A DNA stretch of 43,709 nt from Vectrevirus T147P1, in the sequence record OZ035797.1, one strand, 5' to 3'. The notes beneath the pieces are model-generated. The model worked only from the letters and a program-made list of their open reading frames with translations. It was not told the DNA's origin and ran no database searches. Below are positions 30-43,709 of the stretch, piece by piece (position 1 is the stretch's first letter; every line of letters begins with the position of its first letter). The position numbers and the translations under genes are program-made.

Positions 30-329
30 GTGAGCGTACACAATAAACATGCAGCTACAGAGGATGAGGTTGGCATTCTGCATGGTGCTATTACCAAAAT
101 CTTCAATAAGAAAGCACAGGCAATACTGGACACTATAGAAGAAGACCCTGATGCAGCATTACATTTAGTGTCTGGTAAGGATATTGGTGCGATGTGTAAG
201 TGGGTTCTTGATAACGGCATTACCGCCACACCTGCTGCACAGCAGGAAGAGTCCAAGTTATCTAAGCGCCTCAAGGCTATCCGAGAGGCATCCAGTGGTA
301 AGATAATTCAATTCACTAAGGAGGATTGA
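30..329 (+). CDS. terminase small subunit (gp18-like); true 5' end uncertain
   Basis: 99-aa ORF (GTG start) directly upstream of and overlapping the large terminase start; frame stays open back to window position 1; size and position match T7/SP6-like small terminase. Confidence 0.5.
   Translation: MSVHNKHAATEDEVGILHGAITKIFNKKAQAILDTIEEDPDAALHLVSGKDIGAMCKWVLDNGITATPAAQQEESKLSKRLKAIREASSGKIIQFTKED
124..144 (+). promoter_or_regulatory. partial phage-promoter-like sequence inside small terminase gene
   Basis: TACTGGACACTATAGAAGAAG matches consensus from -15 to +6 but lacks the upstream ATT. Confidence 0.3.
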
Positions 330-2227
330 TGGCTAAGGCAAGAGAATCACAAGCGGAGGCTCTTGCCAGATGGGAGATGCTACAGGAGTTACAGCAGACC
401 TTTCCTTACACAGCGGAAGGTTTGCTTCTCTTTGCAGATACAGTTATTCATAACTTAATTGCAGGCAACCCTCATCTGATTCGTATGCAGGCGGATATCT
501 TGAAGTTCCTATTTTACGGACACAAGTACCGCCTCATCGAAGCGCCTCGTGGTATCGCTAAGACAACACTATCAGCAATCTATACGGTATTCCGTATTAT
601 TCATGAACCGCATAAGCGTATCATGGTTGTGTCCCAAAACGCCAAGCGAGCAGAGGAAATCGCAGGTTGGGTAGTTAAAATCTTCCGTGGCTTAGACTTT
701 CTTGAGTTTATGCTGCCGGATATCTACGCTGGGGACCGTGCATCCGTTAAGGCGTTTGAGATTCATTACACCCTACGTGGCAGTGATAAGTCTCCTTCTG
801 TATCATGTTACTCAATCGAAGCAGGTATGCAGGGTGCTCGTGCTGATATTATTCTAGCGGATGACGTAGAGTCGATGCAGAATGCTCGTACGGCAGCGGG
901 CCGTGCCTTGCTTGAGGAACTGACTAAGGAGTTTGAATCTATCAACCAGTTTGGGGATATCATTTACCTTGGTACACCTCAGAACGTAAACTCTATCTAC
1001 AACAACCTACCTGCTCGTGGTTACTCTGTTCGTATCTGGACTGCGCGTTACCCTTCAGTAGAGCAAGAGCAATGTTATGGCGACTTCCTTGCACCTATGA
1101 TTGTTCAAGATATGAAGGACAACCCAGCACTTCGCTCAGGGTACGGGTTGGATGGTAATAGTGGTGCACCTTGTGCCCCTGAAATGTATGATGATGAAGT
1201 CCTGATTGAGAAGGAAATCTCTCAGGGTGCTGCTAAGTTCCAGCTTCAGTTCATGCTTAACACTCGCATGATGGATGCTGACAGATACCCATTACGCCTG
1301 AACAATCTAATCTTCACCTCGTTTGGTACAGAGGAAGTCCCTGTGATGCCTACGTGGAGTAATGATTCCATAAACATCATTGGTGATGCACCTAAGTATG
1401 GTAACAAGCCTACGGATTTCATGTACAGACCTGTAGCTCGCCCATACGAATGGGGTGCTGTCTCCCGCAAGATTATGTATATTGACCCTGCGGGTGGTGG
1501 TAAGAACGGAGATGAGACGGGTGTAGCCATAGTATTCCTGCACGGCACATTCATTTATGTGTATCAGTGCTTTGGTGTACCTGGCGGATACCGAGAGTCG
1601 TCCCTGAATCGCATTGTGCAGGCCGCAAAGCAGGCGGGTGTTAAAGAGGTATTCATTGAGAAGAACTTTGGTCATGGCGCGTTTGAGGCGGTAATTAAGC
1701 CGTACTTTGAACGAGAGTGGCCTGTAACTCTGGAAGAGGATTACGCCACCGGACAGAAAGAGTTGCGTATCATTGAGACGCTGGAGCCGCTCATGGCAGC
1801 CCATAGGCTTATCTTCAATGCAGAGATGGTGAAGTCAGACTTTGAGTCGGTACAGCACTATCCGCTTGAACTACGCATGTCCTACAGTCTTTTCAATCAA
1901 ATGTCGAACATAACGATTGAGAAGAACAGCCTCCGGCACGATGACCGCCTAGACGCCCTGTATGGCGCTATACGGCAATTAACTTCTCAGATAGACTATG
2001 ACGAGGTTACACGGATTAATCGCCTCAGAGCGCAGGAGATGCGCGATTACATCCATGCTATGAACACACCTCATCTACGCAGGGCAATGCTATATGGAGA
2101 TTACGGTACTGAGCGAAGAGTGACCAACACTTCCGTAGCGATGCAGCAGCGAGTTTACGGACAGAACTACCGAAATAAATCGGCAAGCAGAAATACACTT
2201 TCTGCAAGGATTTCAAGGACTTATTAA
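326..2227 (+). CDS. terminase large subunit (gp19-like)
   Basis: 633-aa ORF; ATPase-like segment PRGIAKTT and acidic ILADDVES, nuclease-like segment YIDPAGGGKNGDETG; follows small terminase with 4-nt overlap. Confidence 0.9.
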   Translation: MMAKARESQAEALARWEMLQELQQTFPYTAEGLLLFADTVIHNLIAGNPHLIRMQADILKFLFYGHKYRLIEAPRGIAKTTLSAIYTVFRIIHEPHKRIMVVSQNAKRAEEIAGWVVKIFRGLDFLEFMLPDIYAGDRASVKAFEIHYTLRGSDKSPSVSCYSIEAGMQGARADIILADDVESMQNARTAAGRALLEELTKEFESINQFGDIIYLGTPQNVNSIYNNLPARGYSVRIWTARYPSVEQEQCYGDFLAPMIVQDMKDNPALRSGYGLDGNSGAPCAPEMYDDEVLIEKEISQGAAKFQLQFMLNTRMMDADRYPLRLNNLIFTSFGTEEVPVMPTWSNDSINIIGDAPKYGNKPTDFMYRPVARPYEWGAVSRKIMYIDPAGGGKNGDETGVAIVFLHGTFIYVYQCFGVPGGYRESSLNRIVQAAKQAGVKEVFIEKNFGHGAFEAVIKPYFEREWPVTLEEDYATGQKELRIIETLEPLMAAHRLIFNAEMVKSDFESVQHYPLELRMSYSLFNQMSNITIEKNSLRHDDRLDALYGAIRQLTSQIDYDEVTRINRLRAQEMRDYIHAMNTPHLRRAMLYGDYGTERRVTNTSVAMQQRVYGQNYRNKSASRNTLSARISRTY

Positions 2228-3916: not shown

Positions 3917-3995
3917 GTAAGATAGCGCCGTTCTTTTGAGCGGCCTATTACTAGCCAATCTTCATGGTGAGGGTTGGAAAGTAATAGGAGGTTTA

Positions 3996-5888
3996 ATGGC
4001 AAGATTAACTCGCCCTGTTAGTGTATTTAATAGTCTGATGGATATTACTTACCCATGCTCCACTGATGGTGGTAAAGCGGAACTACTACAGGTTATACCC
4101 GGACGTATGTCTGGTGGTGGTATCCTACTTTGGGACGCCAGTATGCCTCAGTCCAATCATAATGGTATTACCATCCTCAGCCCTGAAGCTAAATGGGATG
4201 GTACTCTAGAAGGTTTTAAGGCCTATAGGGAAAGTGGAGGGACTGGCAATGGTTGCTGGGTTCGACCACGCAAAGGTACTGATCTGATGGCATCTTGGGC
4301 TGGTGTTGACACAGACGGGGACTGGATTGCGGATGAGCCACTTATGGCGCTGTGTCAGATTGCACATACACAACGTCGTAATATACGCATAGACTCTGGT
4401 GCTGTCATTCGTTGCGGTTTCACAACTCCGATTTTTCAGCAAGACAAGCACAACATTCTATCTCAAACATCTTTTGTATTACGTGGTTTAAAGAACTTCT
4501 CCATATATGCTGAGCAAGATGCAGAGATAATCACAGACCACCCTGTACATCGTGAGCGTACAGTATTCTTCTTGGACGGTTGCGATAAGGTTACAATTTC
4601 TGGTCTTAAGTTTAATTCTGATTTCAGCGATTATTCTTTCGAACCTAATAGTCCCTATGAGCACCATATCAATGAACACTGGTTAGGTGTAGTTGCAGAG
4701 GCTTGTGGTACTGTTGAGGTTCGCAGATGTATGTTCAATGCACCTCAGTTTGCTGTAAAGGCCGACTGTTTTAATAGAACAGACGGTAGGTGGAATGACA
4801 CAGTTGCAGTAAAAGATTGTTTCTTCCAGTATGCTACAAACTATTGCTTTTTATCACGTAAGTTACGACATTACATCTTCTCTGATAATGAAGTAAGATT
4901 TAATGGACGTAAGTGGCATACATATGGAGAGGCTTGTGCTCCTACTACCTATACTGAGAATCAGATTATCACTCGTAACCGTTTCATAGATCAGATTGCT
5001 GGTCAAAGCTGTATAACTCCTGGTTCTTATGCTAAGCAAGTACTTATTTCAGATAACTTCTGTCAACGTAGTAATGGTATCTTTGTTGAGATAGGCAGTG
5101 CTAGTAATATTAATATTCTTAACAACGTCTCCAAATCTACAGGTGAACGCATCGTCCACGGAAGTGATAAGTATGCAGGAACTACACACATCCTTCTAGT
5201 ATCTGGGGCAGTTGATGATGAACCTGCTGGTGGGCTAAGTAATATCTTGATTCAAGGTAATAACTTCCAAGGCGGTGGTTATGCTTTACAAGAGTACAAT
5301 ACAGGCATCCCTATTCGTCGCGGGTTGGATATTCTTAATAACCACCTTGTAGACTGTATTCCACCAGCCTGTACTAACCAATCCTTTAAGTATATTAGGG
5401 TAGAAGGTAACTACATCCAAGCACCGGATGATTACCCAGATATGGCTATTGCAGGTCAACACCCTATTATCAAGGATAATGTCCTTATCGGTGTGCGATT
5501 GAGGGCTAGAGATTTAGGTTATACTGTTGTAGGGTTAAAAGTAATAGGTAATACTTTTACTGCAAATAGTGTAGCATCTAAGTTCCCTGCACTGATAGAC
5601 TACACTGATCTAGAAGATCTTGAAGCTTATGACAACGCAGCAGGTATTCAGGCATCTTATGATAGCTTTATAGTAGCACCTGATAACTGTAATAAAATTA
5701 GCTTTATGAAAGTCGGTATGGTTGAAGGTTTTACACAGACACCAGCAGTGGTTTATGGTAGTAAGTTGCAAGAACAGAAGGCAGGTGCGATTATTGGCAA
5801 TAGTGCACCTGGGTCTGTACATGGTTGTGCTGCATTCGTGAGTACTTCTAGTGGTGGTTGGGGTTTTATAAACTACGTTCCCGCATAA
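3996..5888 (+). CDS. tailspike protein 1, predicted beta-helix polysaccharide depolymerase; no T7 gp17 N-terminal adaptor domain
   Basis: ATG at 3996 after AGGAGG; ~630 aa with repetitive N/G/I/V-rich segments typical of right-handed beta-helix tailspikes; located after terminase as in SP6/K1-5-type phages. Confidence 0.65.
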   Translation: MARLTRPVSVFNSLMDITYPCSTDGGKAELLQVIPGRMSGGGILLWDASMPQSNHNGITILSPEAKWDGTLEGFKAYRESGGTGNGCWVRPRKGTDLMASWAGVDTDGDWIADEPLMALCQIAHTQRRNIRIDSGAVIRCGFTTPIFQQDKHNILSQTSFVLRGLKNFSIYAEQDAEIITDHPVHRERTVFFLDGCDKVTISGLKFNSDFSDYSFEPNSPYEHHINEHWLGVVAEACGTVEVRRCMFNAPQFAVKADCFNRTDGRWNDTVAVKDCFFQYATNYCFLSRKLRHYIFSDNEVRFNGRKWHTYGEACAPTTYTENQIITRNRFIDQIAGQSCITPGSYAKQVLISDNFCQRSNGIFVEIGSASNINILNNVSKSTGERIVHGSDKYAGTTHILLVSGAVDDEPAGGLSNILIQGNNFQGGGYALQEYNTGIPIRRGLDILNNHLVDCIPPACTNQSFKYIRVEGNYIQAPDDYPDMAIAGQHPIIKDNVLIGVRLRARDLGYTVVGLKVIGNTFTANSVASKFPALIDYTDLEDLEAYDNAAGIQASYDSFIVAPDNCNKISFMKVGMVEGFTQTPAVVYGSKLQEQKAGAIIGNSAPGSVHGCAAFVSTSSGGWGFINYVPA

Positions 5889-5894
5889 TCACAA

Positions 5895-5918
5895 GGCAGT
5901 GCGTAAGCACTGCTTTTC
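5895..5918 (+). terminator. intrinsic terminator-like hairpin between the two tailspike genes
   Basis: GCAGTGC-GTAA-GCACTGC (7-bp stem, GNRA loop) followed by TTTT. Confidence 0.5.
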
Positions 5919-5973
5919 ACGCAACTTTTCTTAAAGGTTATCATGGTGGTAGCCTTTCAGAAAAGGAGGTTAC

Positions 5974-7686
5974 ATGCTTCAAAGATTAAGTGCTTACTTG
6001 GTGAAGTACAAGAGTAAACTAACAGGTACTATTGAGCGCCTGCTATCTGATAAACTATCGGATACAATAGATGTTGCGGATTTTGGAGTTAATCCATCTT
6101 CTAATGACAACAGGCAAGCCCTTCAAGCTGCATTCAATGCGGTCAGATTTCTAGGCGGAGGTACTGTATCAGTCACTAAAGCTGGCGAATATAAACTCAG
6201 TGGTACTGTTGAGATATTTGCTAATACACACTTCAAGGTTGCTAAAGGTGTAACATTTGTACGTGACTACGAAACAGGAGATACGCTATTCAGATTATCA
6301 CAAGGGCAAGCTAGTAATGTAACAGTCAGTGGAGGTGTCTATGAAGGCAATGGTCACATTAAAGGAGATACACCTTTTGTAGTATTTGCATCTACTAGTA
6401 ATAATGATTTGAAGTTTGAAGGCATAACAGTTAACAATGTAGTGGACTACCACGCCATAGATTTAGCAGATTGGAACAACGTAGTTATTCGTGATTGTAA
6501 GTTCCTAGGGTTTAAGAATACAGGCAGTCGTAACTTCTCAGAGGCTATACAGTTAGACCCAGGACTTATTACAGTAGGTCGCTATGTGCAGTCTAGTGGT
6601 TTACTGGTAGAGAATTGCTATGCTGGCCCAAACCTTGATTCTGGATTTGGCGGGTATGGTGCTCTAGTAGGAAATCATGCATCAGCTTATGGTGTTCAAG
6701 ATAACAACATTAGAATCCTAAATTGCACTACAGATGGTGCGCTCTTTGCAGGTGTACGTGTATTTAACTGGAAAAACTGGACAGTACGTGGTTGCACCTT
6801 TAGAAACTCTAATGCAAGAGGTGTTCATGTTACACCTGTCTCCTCTCAAACTAAACCGCAAGGAACTCGACAAGGCAGTGTTGTAGATTGTACTTTTGAT
6901 GGCGTAAGAACACCAGTGCTAATTGCGGCACCATCTTGGCCTTTTACCGATATTAGTGACATTTGGCATGACCATATTGAAATTTCTAATAATACTATGA
7001 TCCTCACAGAGGATGTATCCTATGGTGTAGATGCAAGGTGGTGTAAGAATTTAATTGTAAAAGGTAATACAGGCTCTGGTGGCTTAGGGTTAATCGGTTT
7101 ACGCTTTGGGACAAAATACCACATCGAAGGTAATACTTGGGAAAACGGAAGAGGTAGTGGGATTTGGTTAGGTGAGTCTGATGCTGCTACATTCATTGGT
7201 ACTGGCTTATCGGGCGAAGGTATACTTAGTCGTAATATCCTCTCTAAATTAGGGCAATATGGTATTCATGTAAACTGCAAGGTTGGCGGTCTAGTGATTA
7301 AGGCTAATAATATGAAGGAAGTATCTACAGCTGAAGCAGGTAGGCACTTCATTAGCATAGACACAGGAGCTAACAACATCCTAGTAGAAGGTAATATTGG
7401 AGTAGATGGAGAAAGCCCTAACAAGCCAAGCCTTGGTATTCGTGTTACTTCTTCTTGCTCCAATATTAAACTAATTGGCAATGATTGCTATGGTACGCAA
7501 GCACCTCAGAATAACCAAGGAGTCGGTTCTAGTACGGTGATTGTTTATGGACTAAATGGTAACCCTACAACTTTAGGCGTAGGTGCACCTGTAGGCTCTT
7601 TAGCAACTGATATCAATGGGTCTGGTGGTAGTACATTGTACGTTAAAGAATCTGGTACATCTGCTCAAGGTTGGGTTGCAAAGTAG
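5974..7686 (+). CDS. tailspike protein 2, pectate-lyase-like beta-helix depolymerase
   Basis: 570 aa after AAAAGGAGG; N-terminal IDVADFGVNPSSNDNRQALQAAF resembles the pectate-lyase-3 motif of capsule depolymerases; Gly/Asn-rich repeats. Confidence 0.75.
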   Translation: MLQRLSAYLVKYKSKLTGTIERLLSDKLSDTIDVADFGVNPSSNDNRQALQAAFNAVRFLGGGTVSVTKAGEYKLSGTVEIFANTHFKVAKGVTFVRDYETGDTLFRLSQGQASNVTVSGGVYEGNGHIKGDTPFVVFASTSNNDLKFEGITVNNVVDYHAIDLADWNNVVIRDCKFLGFKNTGSRNFSEAIQLDPGLITVGRYVQSSGLLVENCYAGPNLDSGFGGYGALVGNHASAYGVQDNNIRILNCTTDGALFAGVRVFNWKNWTVRGCTFRNSNARGVHVTPVSSQTKPQGTRQGSVVDCTFDGVRTPVLIAAPSWPFTDISDIWHDHIEISNNTMILTEDVSYGVDARWCKNLIVKGNTGSGGLGLIGLRFGTKYHIEGNTWENGRGSGIWLGESDAATFIGTGLSGEGILSRNILSKLGQYGIHVNCKVGGLVIKANNMKEVSTAEAGRHFISIDTGANNILVEGNIGVDGESPNKPSLGIRVTSSCSNIKLIGNDCYGTQAPQNNQGVGSSTVIVYGLNGNPTTLGVGAPVGSLATDINGSGGSTLYVKESGTSAQGWVAK

Positions 7687-7695
7687 TAGGATTGC

Positions 7696-7845
7696 ATGCC
7701 AATAATCAAATCAGTTAAGCAAAGTGCTGTACGCCAGAACACAGAAGAGCTTATTCAATCAGGCCGTGACCCTAAGCAAGCTTATGCCATTGCCAAGGGT
7801 GTACAACGTCGTGCCTTGAAGAAACCTTCTGCATCTTCTGCGTAA
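7696..7845 (+). CDS. hypothetical small basic protein (49 aa)
   Basis: ATG 10 nt after tailspike 2 stop; MPIIKSVKQSAVRQNTEELIQSGRDPKQAYAIAKGVQRRALKKPSASSA; weak SD. Confidence 0.3.
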   Translation: MPIIKSVKQSAVRQNTEELIQSGRDPKQAYAIAKGVQRRALKKPSASSA

Positions 7846-7849
7846 GCAG

Positions 7850-8700
7850 GTTAATATCTTAGTGTACACAAGGGCAGACCTAGGTTTGCTCTTAGTGTAT
7901 TTACAATGGAGGTCTTATGTATATACCTATTGAAGCAATAGTAGGTTGCCTATGTTTGTTGATAGGTTTCGTTATAGGCGTAATAGCAAAGCCTTAGTAC
8001 TGTACAAGGATTAACCAAAGTCAAAATTTTGATATAGGCGTGTGTCAGCTCTCTCGCCCTCGCCCTCGCCGGGTTGTCCCCATATGGGGTCGGTCGGCGG
8101 TTGACCTAGGAATTTGGCGGGGCGGGTCCGTCTTCAACCTGCTGCCGCAGGAAGCTCGACGGGTGGGCGAGGGCTTGCCTTGTACTCGCTTAGTGGTACA
8201 CAAGGAGAACGCCTAGGAAGCGCTAGGGCACGCCTTAGTATTGGACAAGGTGATTGCCTTAGTTCAACCGCTTAGAGCTTACACGGGCCGTTTTAGGGCC
8301 ATTCCTGAGCGTTTGACAGGGTGTGAGGGCGTGGGCTATCTGTTCGTTTCGTTCACTCCGCTTGCGCTACGTTCACTCGCTCACGTGTACCTTAGGTTAT
8401 TCCTTGATGGATAGCTTAGGTTAGCCTTAGTGGATTACCTTAGTTAAAGCCTTAGTGCTTCACTTAGTATCAGCTTAGTAGTGTACCTTAGTAAGTATTA
8501 GTGTCTTCTCTTAGTGATTGCACATGCAAGCATGTAAGATGCCATTAGGTCGCGGTCGGTAGACCGCTAAAGAAGGAGAATAGTAATAAGATGCAGTAGG
8601 AGGAACACCCGAAACCTAGCCAACCTAGCCTATCCTAGCTCTGTATCTATTGCTTTTCCTTAGTCTAACATGTGAGACAACCTAGATTTATCTTAGTGAT
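7850..8700. repeat. genome terminus-like non-coding region with short repeats
   Basis: no long ORF; two copies of CTTAGTG(G)TACACAAGG near 7859 and 8189; GC-rich island with CTCGCC x3 (8053-8070) and CCCCATATGGGG (8078-8089); >10 copies of CCTTAGT/GCTTAG within 8230-8520; resembles the T7 left-end architecture. Confidence 0.5.
8664..8679. repeat. degenerate copy of the palindromic hairpin family
   Basis: GTCTAACATGTGAGAC, one substitution from the GTCTCACATGTGAGAC palindrome. Confidence 0.35.
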
Positions 8701-8712
8701 GATATCTTAGTG

Positions 8713-8741
8713 TTGACAAGGCCATCTCAATATAATACTAT
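8713..8741 (+). promoter_or_regulatory. host sigma70-like early promoter candidate
   Basis: TTGACA, 17-nt spacer, TACTAT; position corresponds to T7 early promoters near the left end. Confidence 0.45.
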
Positions 8742-8842
8742 TCATCACGTAGGCAGCACTGAGGTGCTTAGTAGCCAGCTAGTAAGGCATACGAAGAGAC
8801 TAGCGCTTACATTGCTCTTTAACAATTTGCTTAGTGTAACCT

Positions 8843-9064
8843 ATGTATGCCGTGGTTAATTACTTATTGAATGAGGGATTAACTATGACATTAAACAACC
8901 GTGAACTATCCGTTCTCTTCACTCTGTTGTGCTACATGATTCGTAACAACGAATTACTTACAGATGATGAGTTAGCCTTGTATCACCGCTTTCTTAACGA
9001 AGGTTGGACCGATACAGTTAATCAATACCGTAACATGATAGATGAGTTGAGGGAGGGTAAATAA
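8843..9064 (+). CDS. hypothetical early protein (start may be ATG 8885)
   Basis: 73-aa ORF; internal ATG at 8885 has a better SD (GAGGGA); first ORF after the early promoter. Confidence 0.5.
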   Translation: MYAVVNYLLNEGLTMTLNNRELSVLFTLLCYMIRNNELLTDDELALYHRFLNEGWTDTVNQYRNMIDELREGK

Positions 9065-9288
9065 TGTATCAACATGAGGTATTCTTTGAATCAGCTAGCG
9101 AAGCTATTCGCTTCCGTGATGATATGATGCAAGCTGGTGTAGGCGTTGATGTGTATCACTATTTGATAGATTACGACACTGAATATCACCGAGTTACCTT
9201 AGTATCTGAGTATGACAACCAAGTCATTACTGAGTACCTAGGCAGTGAAGATTACGATTACGATGAAGTAATCACGACAAATCTCTAA
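9064..9288 (+). CDS. hypothetical acidic early protein
   Basis: 74-aa ORF overlapping the previous stop (TAATG); acidic, Tyr/Asp-rich C-terminus. Confidence 0.5.
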   Translation: MYQHEVFFESASEAIRFRDDMMQAGVGVDVYHYLIDYDTEYHRVTLVSEYDNQVITEYLGSEDYDYDEVITTNL

Positions 9289-11367: not shown

Positions 11368-13995
11368 ATGCAAGACCTACACGCTATTCAACTTCAACTT
11401 GAAGAAGAAATGTTTAACGGCGGTATCCGTCGCTTTGAAGCGGACCAACAACGCCAGATTGCATCCGGTAATGAATCAGACACGGCATGGAATCGCCGCT
11501 TATTGTCCGAGTTAATCGCGCCAATGGCTGAAGGTATTCAGGCTTATAAGGAAGAGTACGAAGGCAAGCGCGGTCGTGCACCACGTGCATTGGCTTTCAT
11601 TAACTGCGTAGAAAATGAAGTGGCAGCGTATATCACGATGAAGATCGTAATGGATATGCTTAACACTGATGTAACCTTGCAAGCTATCGCTATGAATGTA
11701 GCTGACCGCATCGAAGACCAAGTGCGCTTCAGTAAACTAGAAGGCCATGCAGCTAAATATTTTGAGAAGGTCAAGAAGTCACTTAAGGCAAGTAAGACTA
11801 AATCATATCGCCATGCGCACAACGTAGCGGTCGTGGCTGAGAAGTCAGTAGCTGACCGTGACGCTGATTTCTCTCGCTGGGAAGCGTGGCCTAAAGATAC
11901 CTTGCTACAAATTGGGATGACCTTGCTTGAAATCTTAGAGAATAGCGTATTCTTCAACGGGCAACCTGTCTTCCTCCGCACCTTGCGCACTAATGGCGGC
12001 AAACATGGTGTTTACTACCTACAGACTAGCGAACACGTGGGTGAATGGATAACTGCATTTAAAGAGCACGTAGCTCAGCTGAGTCCAGCCTATGCGCCTT
12101 GCGTGATTCCTCCTCGTCCGTGGGTGTCACCTTTTAATGGCGGTTTTCACACGGAGAAGGTGGCAAGCCGTATTCGTCTGGTTAAAGGTAACCGCGAGCA
12201 CGTCCGCAAGCTGACCAAAAAGCAAATGCCAGCGGTTTACAAGGCTGTTAACGCCTTACAAGCTACTAAGTGGCAGGTTAACAAGGAAGTATTGCAGGTA
12301 GTAGAAGATGTTATTCGTCTAGACCTCGGTTATGGTGTACCTTCCTTTAAGCCGCTCATTGACCGCGAGAACAAACCAGCTAACCCTGTTCCTCTTGAGT
12401 TCCAGCACCTGCGAGGCCGTGAACTTAAAGAGATGCTAACGCCGGAACAATGGCAAGCCTTTATAAACTGGAAAGGAGAATGTACCAAGCTGTATACCGC
12501 TGAAACTAAGCGCGGAAGCAAGTCGGCGGCGACCGTTCGCATGGTTGGACAAGCCCGTAAATACAGCCAGTTTGACGCAATTTATTTTGTGTATGCACTG
12601 GACAGCCGTTCACGCGTTTATGCGCAATCTAGCACGCTCTCGCCGCAATCAAACGACTTAGGCAAGGCATTGCTCCGTTTTACCGAAGGGCAGCGTCTTG
12701 ATAGCACTGAGGCGCTTAAGTGGTTTTTGGTGAACGGGGCGAATAACTGGGGTTGGGATAAGAAAACTTTTGACGTGCGCACCGCTAACGTGCTGGATAG
12801 CGAATTTCAAGACATGTGCCGCGACATTGCAGCCGACCCGCTGACCTTCACTCAATGGGTAAATGCTGATTCCCCTTATGGCTTCCTTGCATGGTGCTTT
12901 GAATATGCGCGTTATCTGGATGCACTGGACGAAGGAACGCAAGACCAATTCATGACGCACCTACCCGTCCATCAAGATGGTAGTTGCTCTGGTATCCAGC
13001 ACTATAGCGCGATGTTACGAGATGAAGTAGGTGCGAAAGCAGTAAACCTTAAGCCTTCTGACTCCCCTCAAGATATTTATGGCGCGGTTGCGCAGGTTGT
13101 TATCCAGAAGAATTACGCCTACATGAATGCAGACGACGCAGTGACTTTCACATCCGGAAGCGTCACACTTACAGGTGCAGAACTGCGTAGCATGGCTAGT
13201 GCGTGGGATATGATAGGAATCACTCGCGGATTGACCAAAAAGCCCGTAATGACACTACCTTATGGCAGCACACGTCTAACCTGCCGTGAATCAGTGATTG
13301 ATTATATCGTTGATTTAGAAGAAAAAGAGGCCCAACGGGCTATTGCGGAAGGGCGTACCGCCAATCCTGTACACCCTTTTGATAATGACCGTAAAGACAG
13401 CCTGACACCTAGCGCAGCTTATAACTATATGACAGCTTTAATCTGGCCTTCTATTTCGGAAGTGGTTAAAGCTCCTATAGTGGCAATGAAAATGATTCGT
13501 CAGCTTGCCCGTTTCGCAGCTAAAAGGAATGAAGGCTTAGAGTATACCCTGCCTACTGGCTTCATCTTGCAACAAAAGATTATGGCTACTGATATGCTCC
13601 GCGTATCTACTTGCTTGATGGGAGAAATCAAGATGAGTCTACAGATTGAAACGGACGTAGTAGATGAAACGGCAATGATGGGCGCTGCTGCTCCTAACTT
13701 TGTGCATGGTCATGATGCCAGTCACCTTATCTTAACGGTCTGCGACCTTGTTGATAAAGGGATTACATCTATCGCAGTAATTCATGATTCTTTTGGCACT
13801 CATGCAGGCCGTACAGCCGATCTACGCAACAGCTTAAGGGCAGAAATGGTGAAAATGTACCAAGGCCGTAATGCACTGCAAAGCCTGCTAGATGAGCACG
13901 AAGAACGCTGGTTAGTTGATACAGGAATCCAAGTACCAGAGCAAGGGGAGTTTGACCTTAACGAAATCTTAGTTTCAGACTATTGCTTCGCATAA
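11368..13995 (+). CDS. single-subunit DNA-directed RNA polymerase (T7 gene 1 / SP6 RNAP family)
   Basis: 875 aa; [25 protein letters not shown]-terminal SDYCFA; [18 protein letters not shown] matches the T7 RNAP segment AINIAQNTAWKINKKVL. Confidence 0.95.
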
Positions 13996-36268: not shown

Positions 36269-39216
36269 TGGCAATTGAGCGACAAGCAGTACAAGGTCTG
36301 CCACAAGTGCAGGCCACTTCTCCTAATGTCATGACCTTTGCACCTCAGCGAGTTGGAGGTGTGGAGGCTGGCGTAGCTTCTACCTCCGGTAGTCGATTTA
36401 TCGAAGACCTTATTCGAGCAGCCAGTAGTGTAGCTGATGTAACCACTGGTATCCTTAATCAAAAGATTGAGGAAGATAAGGTTGTTCAAATGGAACGGGC
36501 ATATAACGGATTAATGCCTTCTGAGGATGCAACTCGTGGTGGCGCTCGTGCTAACATGCTTGTCAAAGCTCAACTGCTAGCTAATGATGAAGCAGCACGA
36601 ATGAAAGACATGGCTACTCGTTTCCAAGGAACGGATGACGAGTGGACACAACTTATGGTTGACTCTCGTAATGAGATGCAGAATAAGCTGTTCCAGCAAT
36701 ACCCTGAGTTGCAAGGTGACAAAGATACTATGCGTATGGTCACTAATGTCTTCCAAGAACAGCAGCCTCAGATTTGGGCTACACGAACCCAGCATAAACT
36801 TGACCGTGAACAAGCAGACCGTGAGGATACCTTTGACGGGCGAGTGGCTTCTACTTGGGATTCTAATATTGACCCTGAAGCCTCTGGCTATGCTTTACAG
36901 GAACGGATCCGCGAAGGTCTTACTCAAGGATTACTACCTGAACAGATGCACAAGAAGTTAGTCCAGCGAGCAATTTCACTTGCACAAGGCGGTGATGTTA
37001 GCATGGCTGAAGCCCTGAAGTATGTGAAGGACGATAAGGGTGTTTCTGTTTATGCTAAGAATCCACAGCTTATCACAGCCATCACTAGTGGTAATGCAGT
37101 TTGGGCTAGGAATAATATAGCTGATGTAACTCGTATGTCTTTCGAAGTTAAAGAATCCTACCTTGCAGGTGATTTAACTGATGAAGAATTGTTGGAACGA
37201 GCACAGCACATTAATAATCTGACAGGTAACTCTGTCTTCTCTAATCCAGAGCTAGAGGCACTGATGCGCCAACGGGCTAAGCAGAATGCAGAGCTAGGTG
37301 CAATGCAGGATATGCGACGTGAGCTTTACTCCGACCGCCTGACTGGCTTCCAAGGTAAGACTGATAAAGAGAAGAAGGCTTACATTGATGTTATCAAACA
37401 GGATAGCCAACTTTATGCAGACCAGCAAATCAAACAACGTGGCTTGGACCCTTACAGTCAAGAGGCTGAAGCTATTCGTGGTGCAGTGGAAGTGCAGCGC
37501 CTGCAATTCATGAACTCCAAAGGCTTAGTGGATGATACCTTTGAGTCTCGTATCAAAGCCATGGAGTCTATGCTATCGCCTGAGCACTTTGCCAAGGGCG
37601 AACCACAGGAGTTGATGACTATTCGCCAGTTGTGGGAACAGTTGCCAGAAGAGAGCCGAGGTGTCTTTGGTGACACGGTGAATGGCTACATGGATAACTA
37701 CAACACTGCACTACAAATGGGAGAGACACCTTTGCAGGCTGCAAGGTTTGCGCGTGAAGCACAGCAGAAATTCTCTCGTACTGAGAAGGAAACCAAGAAG
37801 TTCAACTCAGCTATTGGAGATGCACTGGATGAGGTATCTGGTGCTGGCTGGTTTGATGGTAAAACCGAAGTGTCAGACTTAGGTAAAGCTATTGCGGAAG
37901 AAGAGTTACGAGCTAAGGCCAATATGTTGTGGTCTAGTGGTATGCGTAACATGGATTCTATCAAGAAGGCTTTAATTACTTGGGGCAATAAACGCTACAC
38001 TCAAACAGAGGATGCAAAGACTTCCGGTGGCTATTTCATTAAAGGTGATTACACTTCTGCATCTGATATGCTTATGTCAGTTGGGAAAGGCGTAAACCCT
38101 ACCGATGTACCTCTGGCGCTTGGTAGGTATGTAGAAATACAGATGCCAGAATTGAAGAAGGAGCTTCAAGAGTGGGAAACTAAAGATGATATATACATTG
38201 ATTACAATGAACAGAAAGGAACTTTTGTGATTCGTGCTGGTGCAGCAGGTCGCCCTCTTTCTGGAGTAATCCCTGTAACCTCTTTAGATACTACTTCACT
38301 ACTAGATTCTGCCTATCAGAAGAAAGTAGAGGAACGAGATAAAGGCGAGTATGTCCACCCGTATCGTACAGATATTGGTGCACAAGAGCCTATGCCAGCT
38401 AAACCAACTGCCAAAGATATTGGTAAATTTGGACTAGCTAACTTCCTCATGTCTTCTGCTTTTGCTTCTGGTGAGAATCTGCCTTCTAACTTCGAGATTA
38501 ACTATCGAGGTAATATGCAACAATTCTATGACAAGCTAGCTATGGATGAGAATAAAGATAAAGTTGGCTTTAATAAGGCAACTGGAACCTTTACTCCATA
38601 TAAAGACGCTCACGGTGAGTCTATCGGTTACGGTCATTTCTTAACGGAAGAAGAGAAGCGAAACGGGTATATTAAGATTGGCGATGAACTAGTTCCCTAT
38701 CGAGGGTCTATGTCTCAGCTTACAGAGAGCAAGGCTCGTGCTCTTATGGAGCAAGATGCTAAGAAGCATGTGCCTCCTACTCGCGACTGGAAGATTCCGT
38801 TTGACCAGATGCACCCTGCACAGCAACGTGGCTTGATGGATTTAAGCTACAATTTAGGTAAAGGTGGAATCCAGGACTCACCGCGTGCTCTTGCTGCATT
38901 CAAAGCTGGTAAGCTTACGGAAGGCTTTATCGAAATGCTGGGCACTGCATCAAGTGAAGGTAAGCGTATCCCTGGCCTACTGAAGCGACGCGCTGAGGCA
39001 TACAATATGGCATCTGCTGGTGGTGTGCCTAAGATTACCGAAGTGGAGACTCGTGAAGATGGCTCCATGTGGGTTAGGTTTGGTGGACCTATGCCAGCAG
39101 GTTCTGTCTCGGCATGGACTCATAAACGTATTGGCGCGGATGGTTGGTATCAGGTTTATGAGGCTGCACCTACCAAGTTAGCTAAAGGTTCTAAGGTAGG
39201 TAAAGTTAAGTTGTAG
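36268..39216 (+). CDS. internal virion protein (gp15-like) with C-terminal lysozyme-like domain
   Basis: 982 aa; C-terminal YKDAHGESIGYGHFLTEEE...QQRGLMDLSYNLG resembles the T4-lysozyme-type motif YKDxEGxxTIGIGH. Confidence 0.75.
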   Translation: MAIERQAVQGLPQVQATSPNVMTFAPQRVGGVEAGVASTSGSRFIEDLIRAASSVADVTTGILNQKIEEDKVVQMERAYNGLMPSEDATRGGARANMLVKAQLLANDEAARMKDMATRFQGTDDEWTQLMVDSRNEMQNKLFQQYPELQGDKDTMRMVTNVFQEQQPQIWATRTQHKLDREQADREDTFDGRVASTWDSNIDPEASGYALQERIREGLTQGLLPEQMHKKLVQRAISLAQGGDVSMAEALKYVKDDKGVSVYAKNPQLITAITSGNAVWARNNIADVTRMSFEVKESYLAGDLTDEELLERAQHINNLTGNSVFSNPELEALMRQRAKQNAELGAMQDMRRELYSDRLTGFQGKTDKEKKAYIDVIKQDSQLYADQQIKQRGLDPYSQEAEAIRGAVEVQRLQFMNSKGLVDDTFESRIKAMESMLSPEHFAKGEPQELMTIRQLWEQLPEESRGVFGDTVNGYMDNYNTALQMGETPLQAARFAREAQQKFSRTEKETKKFNSAIGDALDEVSGAGWFDGKTEVSDLGKAIAEEELRAKANMLWSSGMRNMDSIKKALITWGNKRYTQTEDAKTSGGYFIKGDYTSASDMLMSVGKGVNPTDVPLALGRYVEIQMPELKKELQEWETKDDIYIDYNEQKGTFVIRAGAAGRPLSGVIPVTSLDTTSLLDSAYQKKVEERDKGEYVHPYRTDIGAQEPMPAKPTAKDIGKFGLANFLMSSAFASGENLPSNFEINYRGNMQQFYDKLAMDENKDKVGFNKATGTFTPYKDAHGESIGYGHFLTEEEKRNGYIKIGDELVPYRGSMSQLTESKARALMEQDAKKHVPPTRDWKIPFDQMHPAQQRGLMDLSYNLGKGGIQDSPRALAAFKAGKLTEGFIEMLGTASSEGKRIPGLLKRRAEAYNMASAGGVPKITEVETREDGSMWVRFGGPMPAGSVSAWTHKRIGADGWYQVYEAAPTKLAKGSKVGKVKL

Positions 39217-42589: not shown

Positions 42590-43551
42590 TGAGTTATACT
42601 TTCACAGAACATATAGCCAACGGTACGCAAGTAACCTATCCCTTTAGCTTTGCTGGTAGGGATAAAGGTTATCTTCGTGCCTCAGATGTGATAGTGGAGT
42701 CTCTTCAAGGTAACACTTGGATTGAGGTTACATCTGGCTGGCAACTAACTGGCACGCACCAGATTACTTTTGATGTAGCACCAGTTGCAGGTTTGAAGTT
42801 CCGTATTCGAAGGGAAGTACAAAAGGAGTATCCATACGCTGAGTTTGACCGTGGTGTTACCTTGGATATGAAGTCTTTAAATGGTTCTTTCATTCATATA
42901 CTGGAGATTACACAGGAGTTACTTGACGGGTTTTATCCAGAAGGATACTTCATTAAACAGAATGTAAGCTGGGGCGGCAATAAGATTACTGATTTGGCTG
43001 ATGGCACAAATCCTGGAGATGCAGTAAATAAAGGGCAGCTTGATGCCATCGACAAGAAGCATACAGATTGGAACGCCAAACAGGACATTGAGATTGCTGG
43101 CCTTAAGGCTGGTATGACTTCTGGTATTGCGCACAGAACTGTTCCTTGGTACACGATAGCCCAAGGTGGTGAGATTTCCGTAAAACCACCTTATGAATTT
43201 CAAGATGCACTAGTTTTCCTTAATGGGGTATTGCAGCACCAAATTGTAGGCGCATACTCTATAAGCAACAACACTATCACTTTCGCAGAGCCGCTTGTGG
43301 CGGGTACAGAGGTGTATGTGCTGATTGGTAGTCGTGTGGCTACATCTGAACCTAATATTCAGTTAGAGTTGAACTTTGACTTAGTAGAAGGCCAACAAGT
43401 AGTACAGATTGGCTCTGCATTTAAGTACATTGAGGTCTACCTTGATGGATTATTACAACCTAAACTTGCTTATCAGGTAGGCGGTGACATTGTTACTTTC
43501 TCAGAGGGAGTGCCAGAATGCCGGATGACTGCTAAGATTATCACAGAATAA
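42589..43551 (+). CDS. tail fibre adaptor protein with T7 gp17-like N-terminal domain
   Basis: 320 aa; N-terminal region has the character of the gp17 tail-attachment domain but lacks the receptor-binding C-terminal part; separate tailspikes are at 3996-7686. Confidence 0.65.
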   Translation: MSYTFTEHIANGTQVTYPFSFAGRDKGYLRASDVIVESLQGNTWIEVTSGWQLTGTHQITFDVAPVAGLKFRIRREVQKEYPYAEFDRGVTLDMKSLNGSFIHILEITQELLDGFYPEGYFIKQNVSWGGNKITDLADGTNPGDAVNKGQLDAIDKKHTDWNAKQDIEIAGLKAGMTSGIAHRTVPWYTIAQGGEISVKPPYEFQDALVFLNGVLQHQIVGAYSISNNTITFAEPLVAGTEVYVLIGSRVATSEPNIQLELNFDLVEGQQVVQIGSAFKYIEVYLDGLLQPKLAYQVGGDIVTFSEGVPECRMTAKIITE

Positions 43552-43560
43552 GGAGGTGGG

Positions 43561-43709
43561 ATGATTAACTCCGAACTGGTAGATAGTGGTGTGAAGCTTG
43601 CGCCACCTGCACTCGTATCAGGTGGGTACTTCCTCGGTATCAGTTGGGATAATTGGGTGTTAATAGCAACATTCATTTATACCGTGTTGCAAATTGGGGA
43701 CTGGTTTTA
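43561..43709 (+). CDS. holin (T7 gp17.5-like), truncated at window end
   Basis: ATG after AAGGAGGTGGG; WDNWVLIATFIYTVLQIGDWF resembles the T7 gp17.5 segment LNEWFYVAAIAYTVVQIG; frame open at the window end. Confidence 0.6.
   Translation, partial: MINSELVDSGVKLAPPALVSGGYFLGISWDNWVLIATFIYTVLQIGDWF

Follow-up and report, generated by a model that had tools for sequence, protein, structure and literature searches.

Probable genome ends of Vectrevirus T147P1: a collapsed terminal repeat placed by comparison with K1E-, SP6- and T7-like phages

The genome of T7 has fixed ends, which carry a direct repeat of 160 bp. This repeat opens on TCTC and holds, about 26-29 nt in, the palindrome CCCCCATAGGGGG (CCCC-ATA-GGGG), while its right edge reads CCCT^ATCTGTT, i.e. 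...GTGTCCCT^ATCTGTTACAG (a caret marks a boundary throughout). CCTAAAG heptamers lie inside the repeat at 17, 41 and 60, to the left of its right-end copy and, to the right of its left copy, in an array with a period of 13 nt. To our knowledge, such heptamer arrays have not been given a function in any phage, T7 included, and we know of no protein that binds the heptamers, in T7 or elsewhere. The class II signal of T7 RNA polymerase consists of a non-template ATCTGTT preceded by A, C or T, a natural copy of it sits at the T7 concatemer junction, and it requires a downstream U-run for release, the polymerase pausing where this run is missing. The paused polymerase-lysozyme complex of T7 was reported to interact with gp18 and gp19 and thereby to start maturation and packaging (PMC3276506), and a sigma-70 promoter hidden inside the class II motif was reported for the same phage in a 2026 preprint. 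In the SP6-like phage UAB_Phi78, fixed ends and a short terminal repeat were established by Bal31 digestion and run-off sequencing (PMC4837284). The terminal repeats that we computed from the ends of linear records measure 288 bp in K1E, 286 bp in mutPK1A2 (annotated as 'redundant repeat' in its record), 234 bp in K1-5, 174 bp in SP6 and 160 bp in T7.

Here, we examine the corresponding locus of Vectrevirus T147P1 (sequence record OZ035797.1, of which the whole stretch of 43,709 nt is called the window below). The feature is one that is already known, namely the ordinary terminal-repeat or concatemer-junction region of SP6/K1E-like (T7-like) phages, and the genus is well sampled: a megablast search with the region and the first 25 kb matched more than 120 related phage records, almost all of them Vectrevirus, Zindervirus or other Molineuxvirinae. 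When compared with the complete linear K1E record by local blastn, the window is fully collinear as a circular permutation. Its last part (43549-43709) matches K1E 36901-37061 and its first part (17-1495) matches K1E 37078-38556, and the window ends 43709/1 abut in K1E at 37061/37062, without a gap, directly upstream of the small-terminase gene. Around the locus of interest, window 7693-8338 matches K1E 44632-45251, the match halting at the final K1E base, and window 8052-8697 matches K1E 1-666, the match opening at the first K1E base. The two matches overlap by 287 nt in the window, and this overlap is the K1E terminal repeat (288 bp). Since the window has a single copy of the repeat and its ends adjoin in K1E, the assembly was collapsed and rotated. 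Judged by this collinearity, the window is a circularly closed and re-opened assembly of a K1E/K1-5-like Vectrevirus (Autographiviridae, Molineuxvirinae).

We infer the termini of T147P1 from their orthology with the record ends of these relatives. The virion DNA would be linear, beginning at about 8052 (TCTCGCCC...) and finishing at about 8338 (...GTGGGCTA), with 8052-8338 (~287 bp) present at both ends. The assembler would have fused the two copies, and the sequence would then have been rotated so as to open at the small-terminase gene, which would give a true genome of about 43,996 bp. It is thus very likely, on the strength of these alignments, that 7850-8900 shows the genome ends of a K1E/SP6-like podophage as they are joined in a concatemer. 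An earlier sequence-only reading had taken 7850-8700 as the probable site of the physical ends and of a collapsed direct terminal repeat and had called for a comparison with the ends of SP6-like genomes. Homology supports this placement, K1E base 1 falling on 8052 and base 45251 on 8338, and the boundary motifs match the record ends of K1E, mutPK1A2, K1-5 and SP6. The gene order around the junction is consistent with it: all genes are on one strand and the junction separates the last late gene from the first early one, the tail-spike genes and small ORFs finishing at 7997 and the first early gene opening at 8885. The genome also encodes a TerS (PHROG 891, E 1e-25), a TerL (PHROG 17672, E 9e-241) and an SP6-type single-subunit RNA polymerase (11368-13995; PHROG 414, E 2e-290). 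In practice, these coordinates can be used to re-linearise the genome (start ~8052, end ~8338, repeat duplicated, ~43,996 bp), and the correct linear form matters for annotation, for synthetic-DNA rebooting, for engineering and for phage-therapy dossiers in which the packaging mode has to be given. As a rule, a low risk of generalised transduction goes with short fixed terminal repeats.

Table 1. Positions of the features at the proposed junction and of the terminase genes of Vectrevirus T147P1, in window coordinates.
Feature	Position	Strand	Remarks
TerS gene	30-329		
TerL gene	326-2227		
49-aa conserved ORF after the tail-spike genes	7696-7845	+	PHROG 2423, E 6.6e-21; counterpart of K1-5 gene 48/SP6 gp51
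CTTAGT-N4-5-ACAAGG elements, 16-17 nt, five copies	7858, 7993, 8189, 8234, 8706 (span 7858-8721)	+	Pattern match
Long imperfect hairpin from two CTTAGTG units	7862-7904	+	-20.1 kcal/mol, z -4.7; 0/200 shuffles as good
Hydrophobic 26-aa ORF, ribosome-binding site GGAGG	7917-7997	+	PHROG 37692, E 5.8e-12; SP6 gp52 counterpart
Ultra-conserved 40-nt block (TAACCAAAGTCAAAATTTTGATATAGGCGTGTGTCAGCTC)	8012-8051		Adjoins the left repeat edge
Direct terminal repeat (287 bp), collapsed to a single copy	8052-8338		Left edge 8050-8054, right edge 8337/8338; K1E alignment
CTCGCC x3, extreme left of the repeat	8053-8070 (8053, 8059, 8065)		Direct match
Palindrome CCCCATATGGGG	8078-8089		Repeat position 27; occurs once in the window
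ATCTGTT preceded by T (T8337), candidate class II pause/termination motif	8338-8344	+	Straddles the right repeat edge
Array of 10 CTTAG(T/G) units	8391-8515	+	Counterpart of the T7 CCTAAAG array right of the left repeat
Conserved hairpin block TAGGTCGCGGTCGGTAGACCGCTAA, 6-bp stem	8546-8570		-13.5 kcal/mol, z -2.2
Short tandem repeat AACCTAGCCT x2.8	8613-8639	+	Conserved from SP6 to K1E
Candidate sigma-70-type early promoter TTGACA-17-TACTAT	8713-8741	+	10/12 consensus matches; TTAGTGTTGACA conserved
First early gene, 59 aa	8885-9064	+	PHROG 9275, E 2.4e-40; K1-5 gene 1 counterpart

The two edges of the repeat can be placed by a five-way junction alignment (right-end unique sequence, repeat, left-end unique sequence) of the window with K1E, mutPK1A2, K1-5 and SP6, to which the window aligns along the whole length. 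All four relatives finish on ...GTGGGCTA, which is followed in the left-end copy by TCTGTTCG, placing this edge at window 8338^8339. The first bases of the four map to window 8050 (SP6), 8052 (K1E), 8053 (mutPK1A2) and 8054 (K1-5). We set the left edge at 8052 ±2 because some relatives read ...GGTG^TCTCGCC there and only the 8052 register gives these relatives a TCTC start; at the other edge, 8337 and 8338 are indistinguishable by run-off sequencing, an A being the next templated base. We therefore give the right edge with an uncertainty of 1 nt and the left edge with one of about 2 nt. The records of other phages fall on the same positions: those of fTuEco01, EEc2 and VEc3 open at 8052 or 8053, those of Pm5460, MidiMira and ACG-C91 end at 8051, that of AAPEc6 opens at 8339 and ends on GGGCTA, that of Mt1B1_P10 also ends on GGGCTA, and that of phD2B has the related GGGCGGTA as its end. 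Public records that open or stop exactly on one of the two boundaries number at least 12, and mutPK1A2, K1-5, SP6, Mt1B1_P10, AAPEc6 and phD2B share the end motif ...GGGC(T/G..)TA, with starts lying 0-4 nt from the TCTC start. The record of UAB_Phi78 has an annotated repeat of 180 nt that starts 16 nt and ends 9 nt further left than in all other records, so that the exact cut positions within the group are only tentative.

The repeats of these Vectrevirus and Zindervirus phages (K1E, mutPK1A2, K1-5 and SP6) are orthologous to that of the window, with 82-98% identity over the repeat in the closest relatives. They occupy the same site, between the tail-spike genes and small ORFs and gene 1, and have the same boundary motifs (...GTGTCAGCTC^TCTCGCC and GTGGGCTA^TCTGTTCG), the same palindrome position, the same flanking CTTAGT array and the same conserved hairpin block. 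Unlike the K1E-group records, the window has one collapsed copy and is rotated; its repeat interior carries substitutions and indels, and its upstream tail-spike genes are unrelated to the K1E endosialidase. The repeat is 60.3% GC versus 44.9% for the whole window, and in a GC scan of the window no peak is higher than this island at scales of 150 and 300 nt, and at 300 nt it alone exceeds the mean by more than 3 sd. At 500 nt, it does not stand out. The GC island of the sequence-only reading is confirmed. The same reading took the region to be the only long non-coding stretch, which is true if ORFs of at least 60 aa are considered (the gap without them, 7687-8842, is the longest of the window with 1156 nt, the next one having 454 nt), but not of its left part, which holds two short conserved ORFs (7696-7845 and 7917-7997), so that the truly non-coding part is about 7998-8884.

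We gathered a set of 15 IMG/VR loci, found with a 23-nt left-flank pattern, and six more distant annotated relatives, which are Proteus Acadevirus, Lelliottia Tuodvirus and Klebsiella phages. About 25 junctions have one common frame. It begins with the left flank and the repeat start, CAAAATTT(T)GATATAGGCGTGTGT-NNNNNN^TCTCG(G/C)CC, continues with the palindrome CCCC-ATA(T)-GGG(G), which was detected in approximately 20 junctions and sits at repeat position 27 in 19 of them and at 26 or 28 in two, and closes, 172-331 nt downstream, with the right edge GGGCTA^TCTGT(T/C); the repeats between these motifs have a length of 172-331 nt and a GC content of 54-67%. The region of the CTCGCC triplet is kept in all relatives as TCTCG(G/C)CCTCG(G/C)CC. 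In an alignment of 14 junctions, 8012-8045, the first ~40 nt of the repeat and 8331-8345, a block that includes ATCTGTT, are near-invariant, and the boundaries are conserved far better than the repeat interior, of which 8090-8200 is merely 20-60% conserved and rich in indels. As read from this alignment, conserved edges with a variable interior are the signature of cis-acting sites at two cuts with a freely evolving spacer between them. The 40-nt block on the left side is particularly well kept: it is 100% identical in the Proteus phages Pm5460 and MidiMira, whose records stop there and which otherwise share almost nothing with the junction region, and it is also kept in Klebsiella and Lelliottia relatives with little else in common. 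We propose that it is a putative terminase recognition and left-cut site. The frame as a whole (left flank, TCTC start, palindrome at ~27 and right-edge ATCTGT) offers a simple rule to locate the ends in collapsed Molineuxvirinae assemblies.

This frame is common to the Molineuxvirinae and T7. The parallel with the T7 left end, drawn by the sequence-only reading from the presence of a terminal repeat and of CCTAAAG-type repeats, holds in detail when the T7 sequence is compared. Both repeats open on TCTC, both have the palindrome at nearly the same distance from the start, both have ATCTGTT at the right edge, and the CTTAGT(G) units of the window are distributed as CCTAAAG is in T7, i.e. on the same strand to the left of, inside and to the right of the repeat. 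In both phages, host-type early promoters (a candidate one in the window) follow the junction. The two junctions have no alignable sequence beyond these motifs, and the heptamer is CCTAAAG in T7 versus CTTAGTG in the window. The window repeat is longer than that of T7 and much GC-richer than its genome, and no phage promoter like T7 phiOR/phiOL was found beside it. Finally, the right end comes one base later in the window group (CTA^TCTGTT) than in T7 (CCCT^ATCTGTT), a difference that is within run-off sequencing error.

On the + strand, 7858-8857 has 18 copies of CTTAGT, and the - strand of this interval has none; in 300 dinucleotide shuffles, no kilobase had more than 5. These copies lie to the left of the repeat (7858, 7891, 7993), inside it (8189, 8234, 8258) and to its right (8426-8510 and beyond). 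In the array of 10 units, the spacing is 10-13 nt, mostly 11-13 nt, save one 24-nt gap after the first unit, and Tandem Repeats Finder reports a 24-nt period with ~2.9 copies at 8388-8457. From this spacing, the period is about 12 nt and not 10.5. Some of the CTTAGT units are part of longer elements, in which ACAAGG follows after 4-5 nt: two are left of the repeat, two within it and one right of it, and these five copies, to be compared with a mean of 0.01 in shuffles, have no equivalent elsewhere in the 43.7-kb window. All the motifs listed by the sequence-only reading are in the sequence. Its three CTCGCC copies and its palindrome are present, the latter being unique in the window; its two copies of CTTAGTG(G)TACACAAGG about 330 bp apart are indeed found, 331 bp apart, at 7858-7873 and 8189-8205, and are two of the five 16-17-nt elements; and its count of more than ten CCTTAGT/GCTTAG units is borne out by the 18 copies given above. 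The roughly helical spacing that it described is right as to a regular array, but at ~12 nt the spacing is slightly over one helical turn and the description is therefore approximate.

Phages of the E. coli, Salmonella and Proteus lineages have CTTAGTG as their most frequent 7-mer, those of the Klebsiella lineage have CATAGTG and T7 has CCTAAAG, and in the alignment of 14 junctions the columns of the units do not vary, unlike the spacers, which drift. Such a concerted switch of units between lineages suggests, at the level of sequence, a phage-encoded binding protein, and a putative co-evolution with this phage-encoded reader can be proposed because the units switch together and stay fixed while the spacers drift. 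The CTTAGTG units and the 16-17-nt elements correspond to the T7 CCTAAAG arrays and are probably bound by a phage protein. That the arrays and elements form a lineage-specific binding code, which would assemble the terminase or a polymerase-terminase complex on the concatemer junction, is a more tentative idea, to which we give rather less than an even chance.

A different reading of the same units and elements would be that they are transcription control sites (degenerate promoter-like or operator sites of the early leader, for the host or phage RNA polymerase) and not packaging signals. The TTGACA that would be the -35 of the candidate early promoter does come from the last 16-nt element, and the TGGACA of the 8234 element matches the phage promoter consensus ATTTACTGGACACTATAGAAG in its core, but there is no full phage promoter in the region at up to 3 mismatches, and the single + strand sigma-70-like site is no more than is found in shuffles. 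In addition, some units precede the repeat and come after the last late gene, a place in which control of early transcription would be meaningless, and the equivalent T7 arrays flank both sides of its repeat alike. We hold transcription control in place of packaging to be unlikely. The 16-17-nt elements were likewise considered as canonical phage promoters and rejected, since none of the 8 SP6-type promoters of the window (SP6 consensus, up to 3 mismatches) lies in 7850-8900. For the region as a whole, one could also think of a replication origin, with the GC island and the CTTAGTG units serving as iterons and with genome ends that are either elsewhere or not fixed. The repeats do crowd together, on one strand, in the longest non-coding stretch, the Klebsiella relatives carry 6-8 DnaA-box-like repeats (CTGTGGATAAC) within the homologous repeat, and a secondary origin is present near the left end of T7, which also counts in favor of this idea. 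However, many relatives have records whose ends coincide exactly with the two conserved boundary motifs, no DnaA-box-like TTWTNCACA is found on either strand in 7600-9100, and the island is GC-rich, without an AT-rich unwinding element; moreover, an origin function could coexist with the termini and would not replace them. We thus hold it to be very improbable that the region is mainly an origin.

Still less credit can be given to headful packaging from a pac site, in which case the genome would be circularly permuted, without fixed ends, and the repeats would do no more than mark a pac or terminase-binding region. What speaks for it is the window itself, a circular-looking assembly with a single copy of everything, and the many related public records that were deposited in arbitrary rotations, but a collapsed short terminal repeat is the expected outcome of an assembly. 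Against permutation stand the identical end motifs of the relatives that have both repeat copies in linear records, the at least 12 related records that open or end on the same two nucleotide positions, the fixed ends of UAB_Phi78 obtained by Bal31 digestion and run-off sequencing (PMC4837284) and a layout that matches that of T7, whose ends are fixed.

At the right edge of the repeat, T-ATCTGTT (8337-8344) fits the class II definition, with an exact core, on the non-template strand, and, when compared with the known class II terminators (PTH, VSV and the T7 junction), an allowed preceding T. It is the only + strand copy of ATCTGTT in the whole window, which has 4 on the - strand. This + strand depletion is not significant (1 observed versus 3.4 expected, 15% of shuffles having one or none), so that the evidence is limited to the placement and the conservation of the motif. 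The sequence that follows it, CGTTTCGTTC, is T-rich yet interrupted, and the lack of a clean U-run in the downstream CGTTTCGTT suggests pausing rather than release. Likewise, in the comparison with class II terminators, the downstream TTCGTTTCGTT is not an uninterrupted U-run and a pause is likelier than release, as at the T7 junction. The Klebsiella-phage relatives read ATCTGTC at the right edge, which would not stop T7 polymerase, and this means either that their polymerases differ or that the motif also serves a nuclease. A hidden sigma-70 promoter, of the kind described inside the T7 motif, was rejected here, since the downstream TGTTCGTTT is without a usable -10.

A packaging mechanism can be drawn by analogy with T7. 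Replication would produce head-to-tail concatemers with one repeat copy between neighboring genomes, which is the arrangement seen in the window. The phage RNA polymerase, moving rightward over the junction, would pause at T-ATCTGTT, at the right repeat edge, and the paused polymerase would help to recruit the terminase (TerS, TerL), which would cut there and package leftward. A second cut would be made at the left edge, beside the ultra-conserved block, and repair synthesis would duplicate the repeat. A separate observation concerns the hairpin formed by two CTTAGTG units at 7862-7904. It is strong, a terminator-like match with a weak U-tract lies within it (7870-7893), and it is possibly a class I terminator of late transcription. 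As such, it may end late transcripts before the junction, which would tell against the mechanism; no phage promoter was found between this hairpin and the repeat (SP6 consensus, up to 3 mismatches).

To the left of the junction, the 49-aa ORF aligns with the right ends of K1-5, K1E and SP6, and the 26-aa ORF, which aligns with SP6 43466-43543, is the last gene before the right genome end. Within the repeat, ORFs of 50-59 aa are found, and the K1E 'gp48' annotation and those of Mt1B1_P10 and UAB_Phi78 overlap the repeat. We did not count them as genes, since the interior is the least conserved part and has many indels. A perfect inverted repeat, GCCCTCGCCC/GGGCGAGGGC (8056-8065 and 8165-8174), was also set aside as due to chance because it is not retained in K1E, mutPK1A2 and K1-5. 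Searches with Rfam gave no covariance-model match at E <=1 in 7600-9100. On the right, the hairpin block is followed by the conserved AAGATGCAG and AGGAGGAACACC, all at least 85% conserved in the 14 junctions. The TTGACA-17-TACTAT site lies further downstream, with its -35 falling in the last 16-nt element and at a distance of ~145 nt upstream of the first early gene; from its sequence, it is a plausible host-type early promoter.

The junction frame (the conserved left flank with the TCTC start, the palindrome and the ATCTGT motif at the right edge) is retained in three Klebsiella-infecting Molineuxvirinae (L032, OY979398.1; L033, PV239575.1; L034, ON602765.1), at about positions 1000-1250 of their loci. 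The interior of their terminal repeat contains 6-8 direct copies of CTGTGGATAAC, which is the reverse complement of TTATCCACA, the DnaA-box consensus, and their flanking heptamer is CATAGTG rather than CTTAGTG. No such DnaA-box-like copies were found on either strand of the window between 7600 and 9100. To the right of the terminal repeat, at a distance of about 210 nt, lies a block that is near-invariant from SP6 through K1E, and whose hairpin is flanked on either side by TAAGATGC.

Relative to the repeat boundaries used for SP6, K1-5, K1E and others, the terminal repeat annotated in UAB_Phi78 (GU595417.2, 1-180) is displaced to the left, by 16 nt at its start and by 9 nt at its end. This offset reflects either a true difference in the ends or an error in one of the mappings.

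On the left side of the junction, the final gene ahead of the right genome end is a mini-gene that is conserved in SP6, where its counterpart is gp52, and that is unaligned in K1E and K1-5. It is preceded by a hairpin, both arms of which contain CTTAGTG and which may be a late terminator. If this candidate is efficient, one has to ask how the polymerase gets to the predicted pause site at the junction (ATCTGTT, 8338-8344, plus strand), since there is no phage promoter between the two.

Features around the genome junction (window coordinates)
Feature	Position	Description
Hairpin	7862-7904	~18 bp; folding energy -20.1 kcal/mol (z score -4.7); directly 3' of a 49-aa ORF
Mini-gene	7917-7997	26 aa, hydrophobic (MYIPIEAIVGCLCLLIGFVIGVIAKP); good ribosome-binding site
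Conserved block	8546-8609	TAGGTCGCGGTCGGTAGACCGCTAA (hairpin) ... TAATAAGATGCAG ... AGGAGGAACACC

Numerous Vectrevirus genomes, including MZ997841.1 and the OZ0357xx series, have been deposited as rotated or collapsed assemblies, and the coordinates of such records do not reflect the physical ends. The ULINTec7 record, for example, begins within the terminal repeat, at the equivalent of window position 8080. The OZ0357xx records share the start point of the window, at the small-terminase gene.

Away from the junction, the tail-spike region (4010-7693) has no blastn match to K1E: in place of the K1E endosialidase, the window has two large ORFs (3936-5888 and 5974-7686). Judging from this replacement, the target of this isolate is probably a capsule or O-antigen other than K1. 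The large-terminase gene also differs, being split in K1E by a homing-endonuclease gene (gp40A / 40.5 / 40B; L009, 37390-40034), whereas in the window TerL (326-2227) is one intact ORF of 633 aa.
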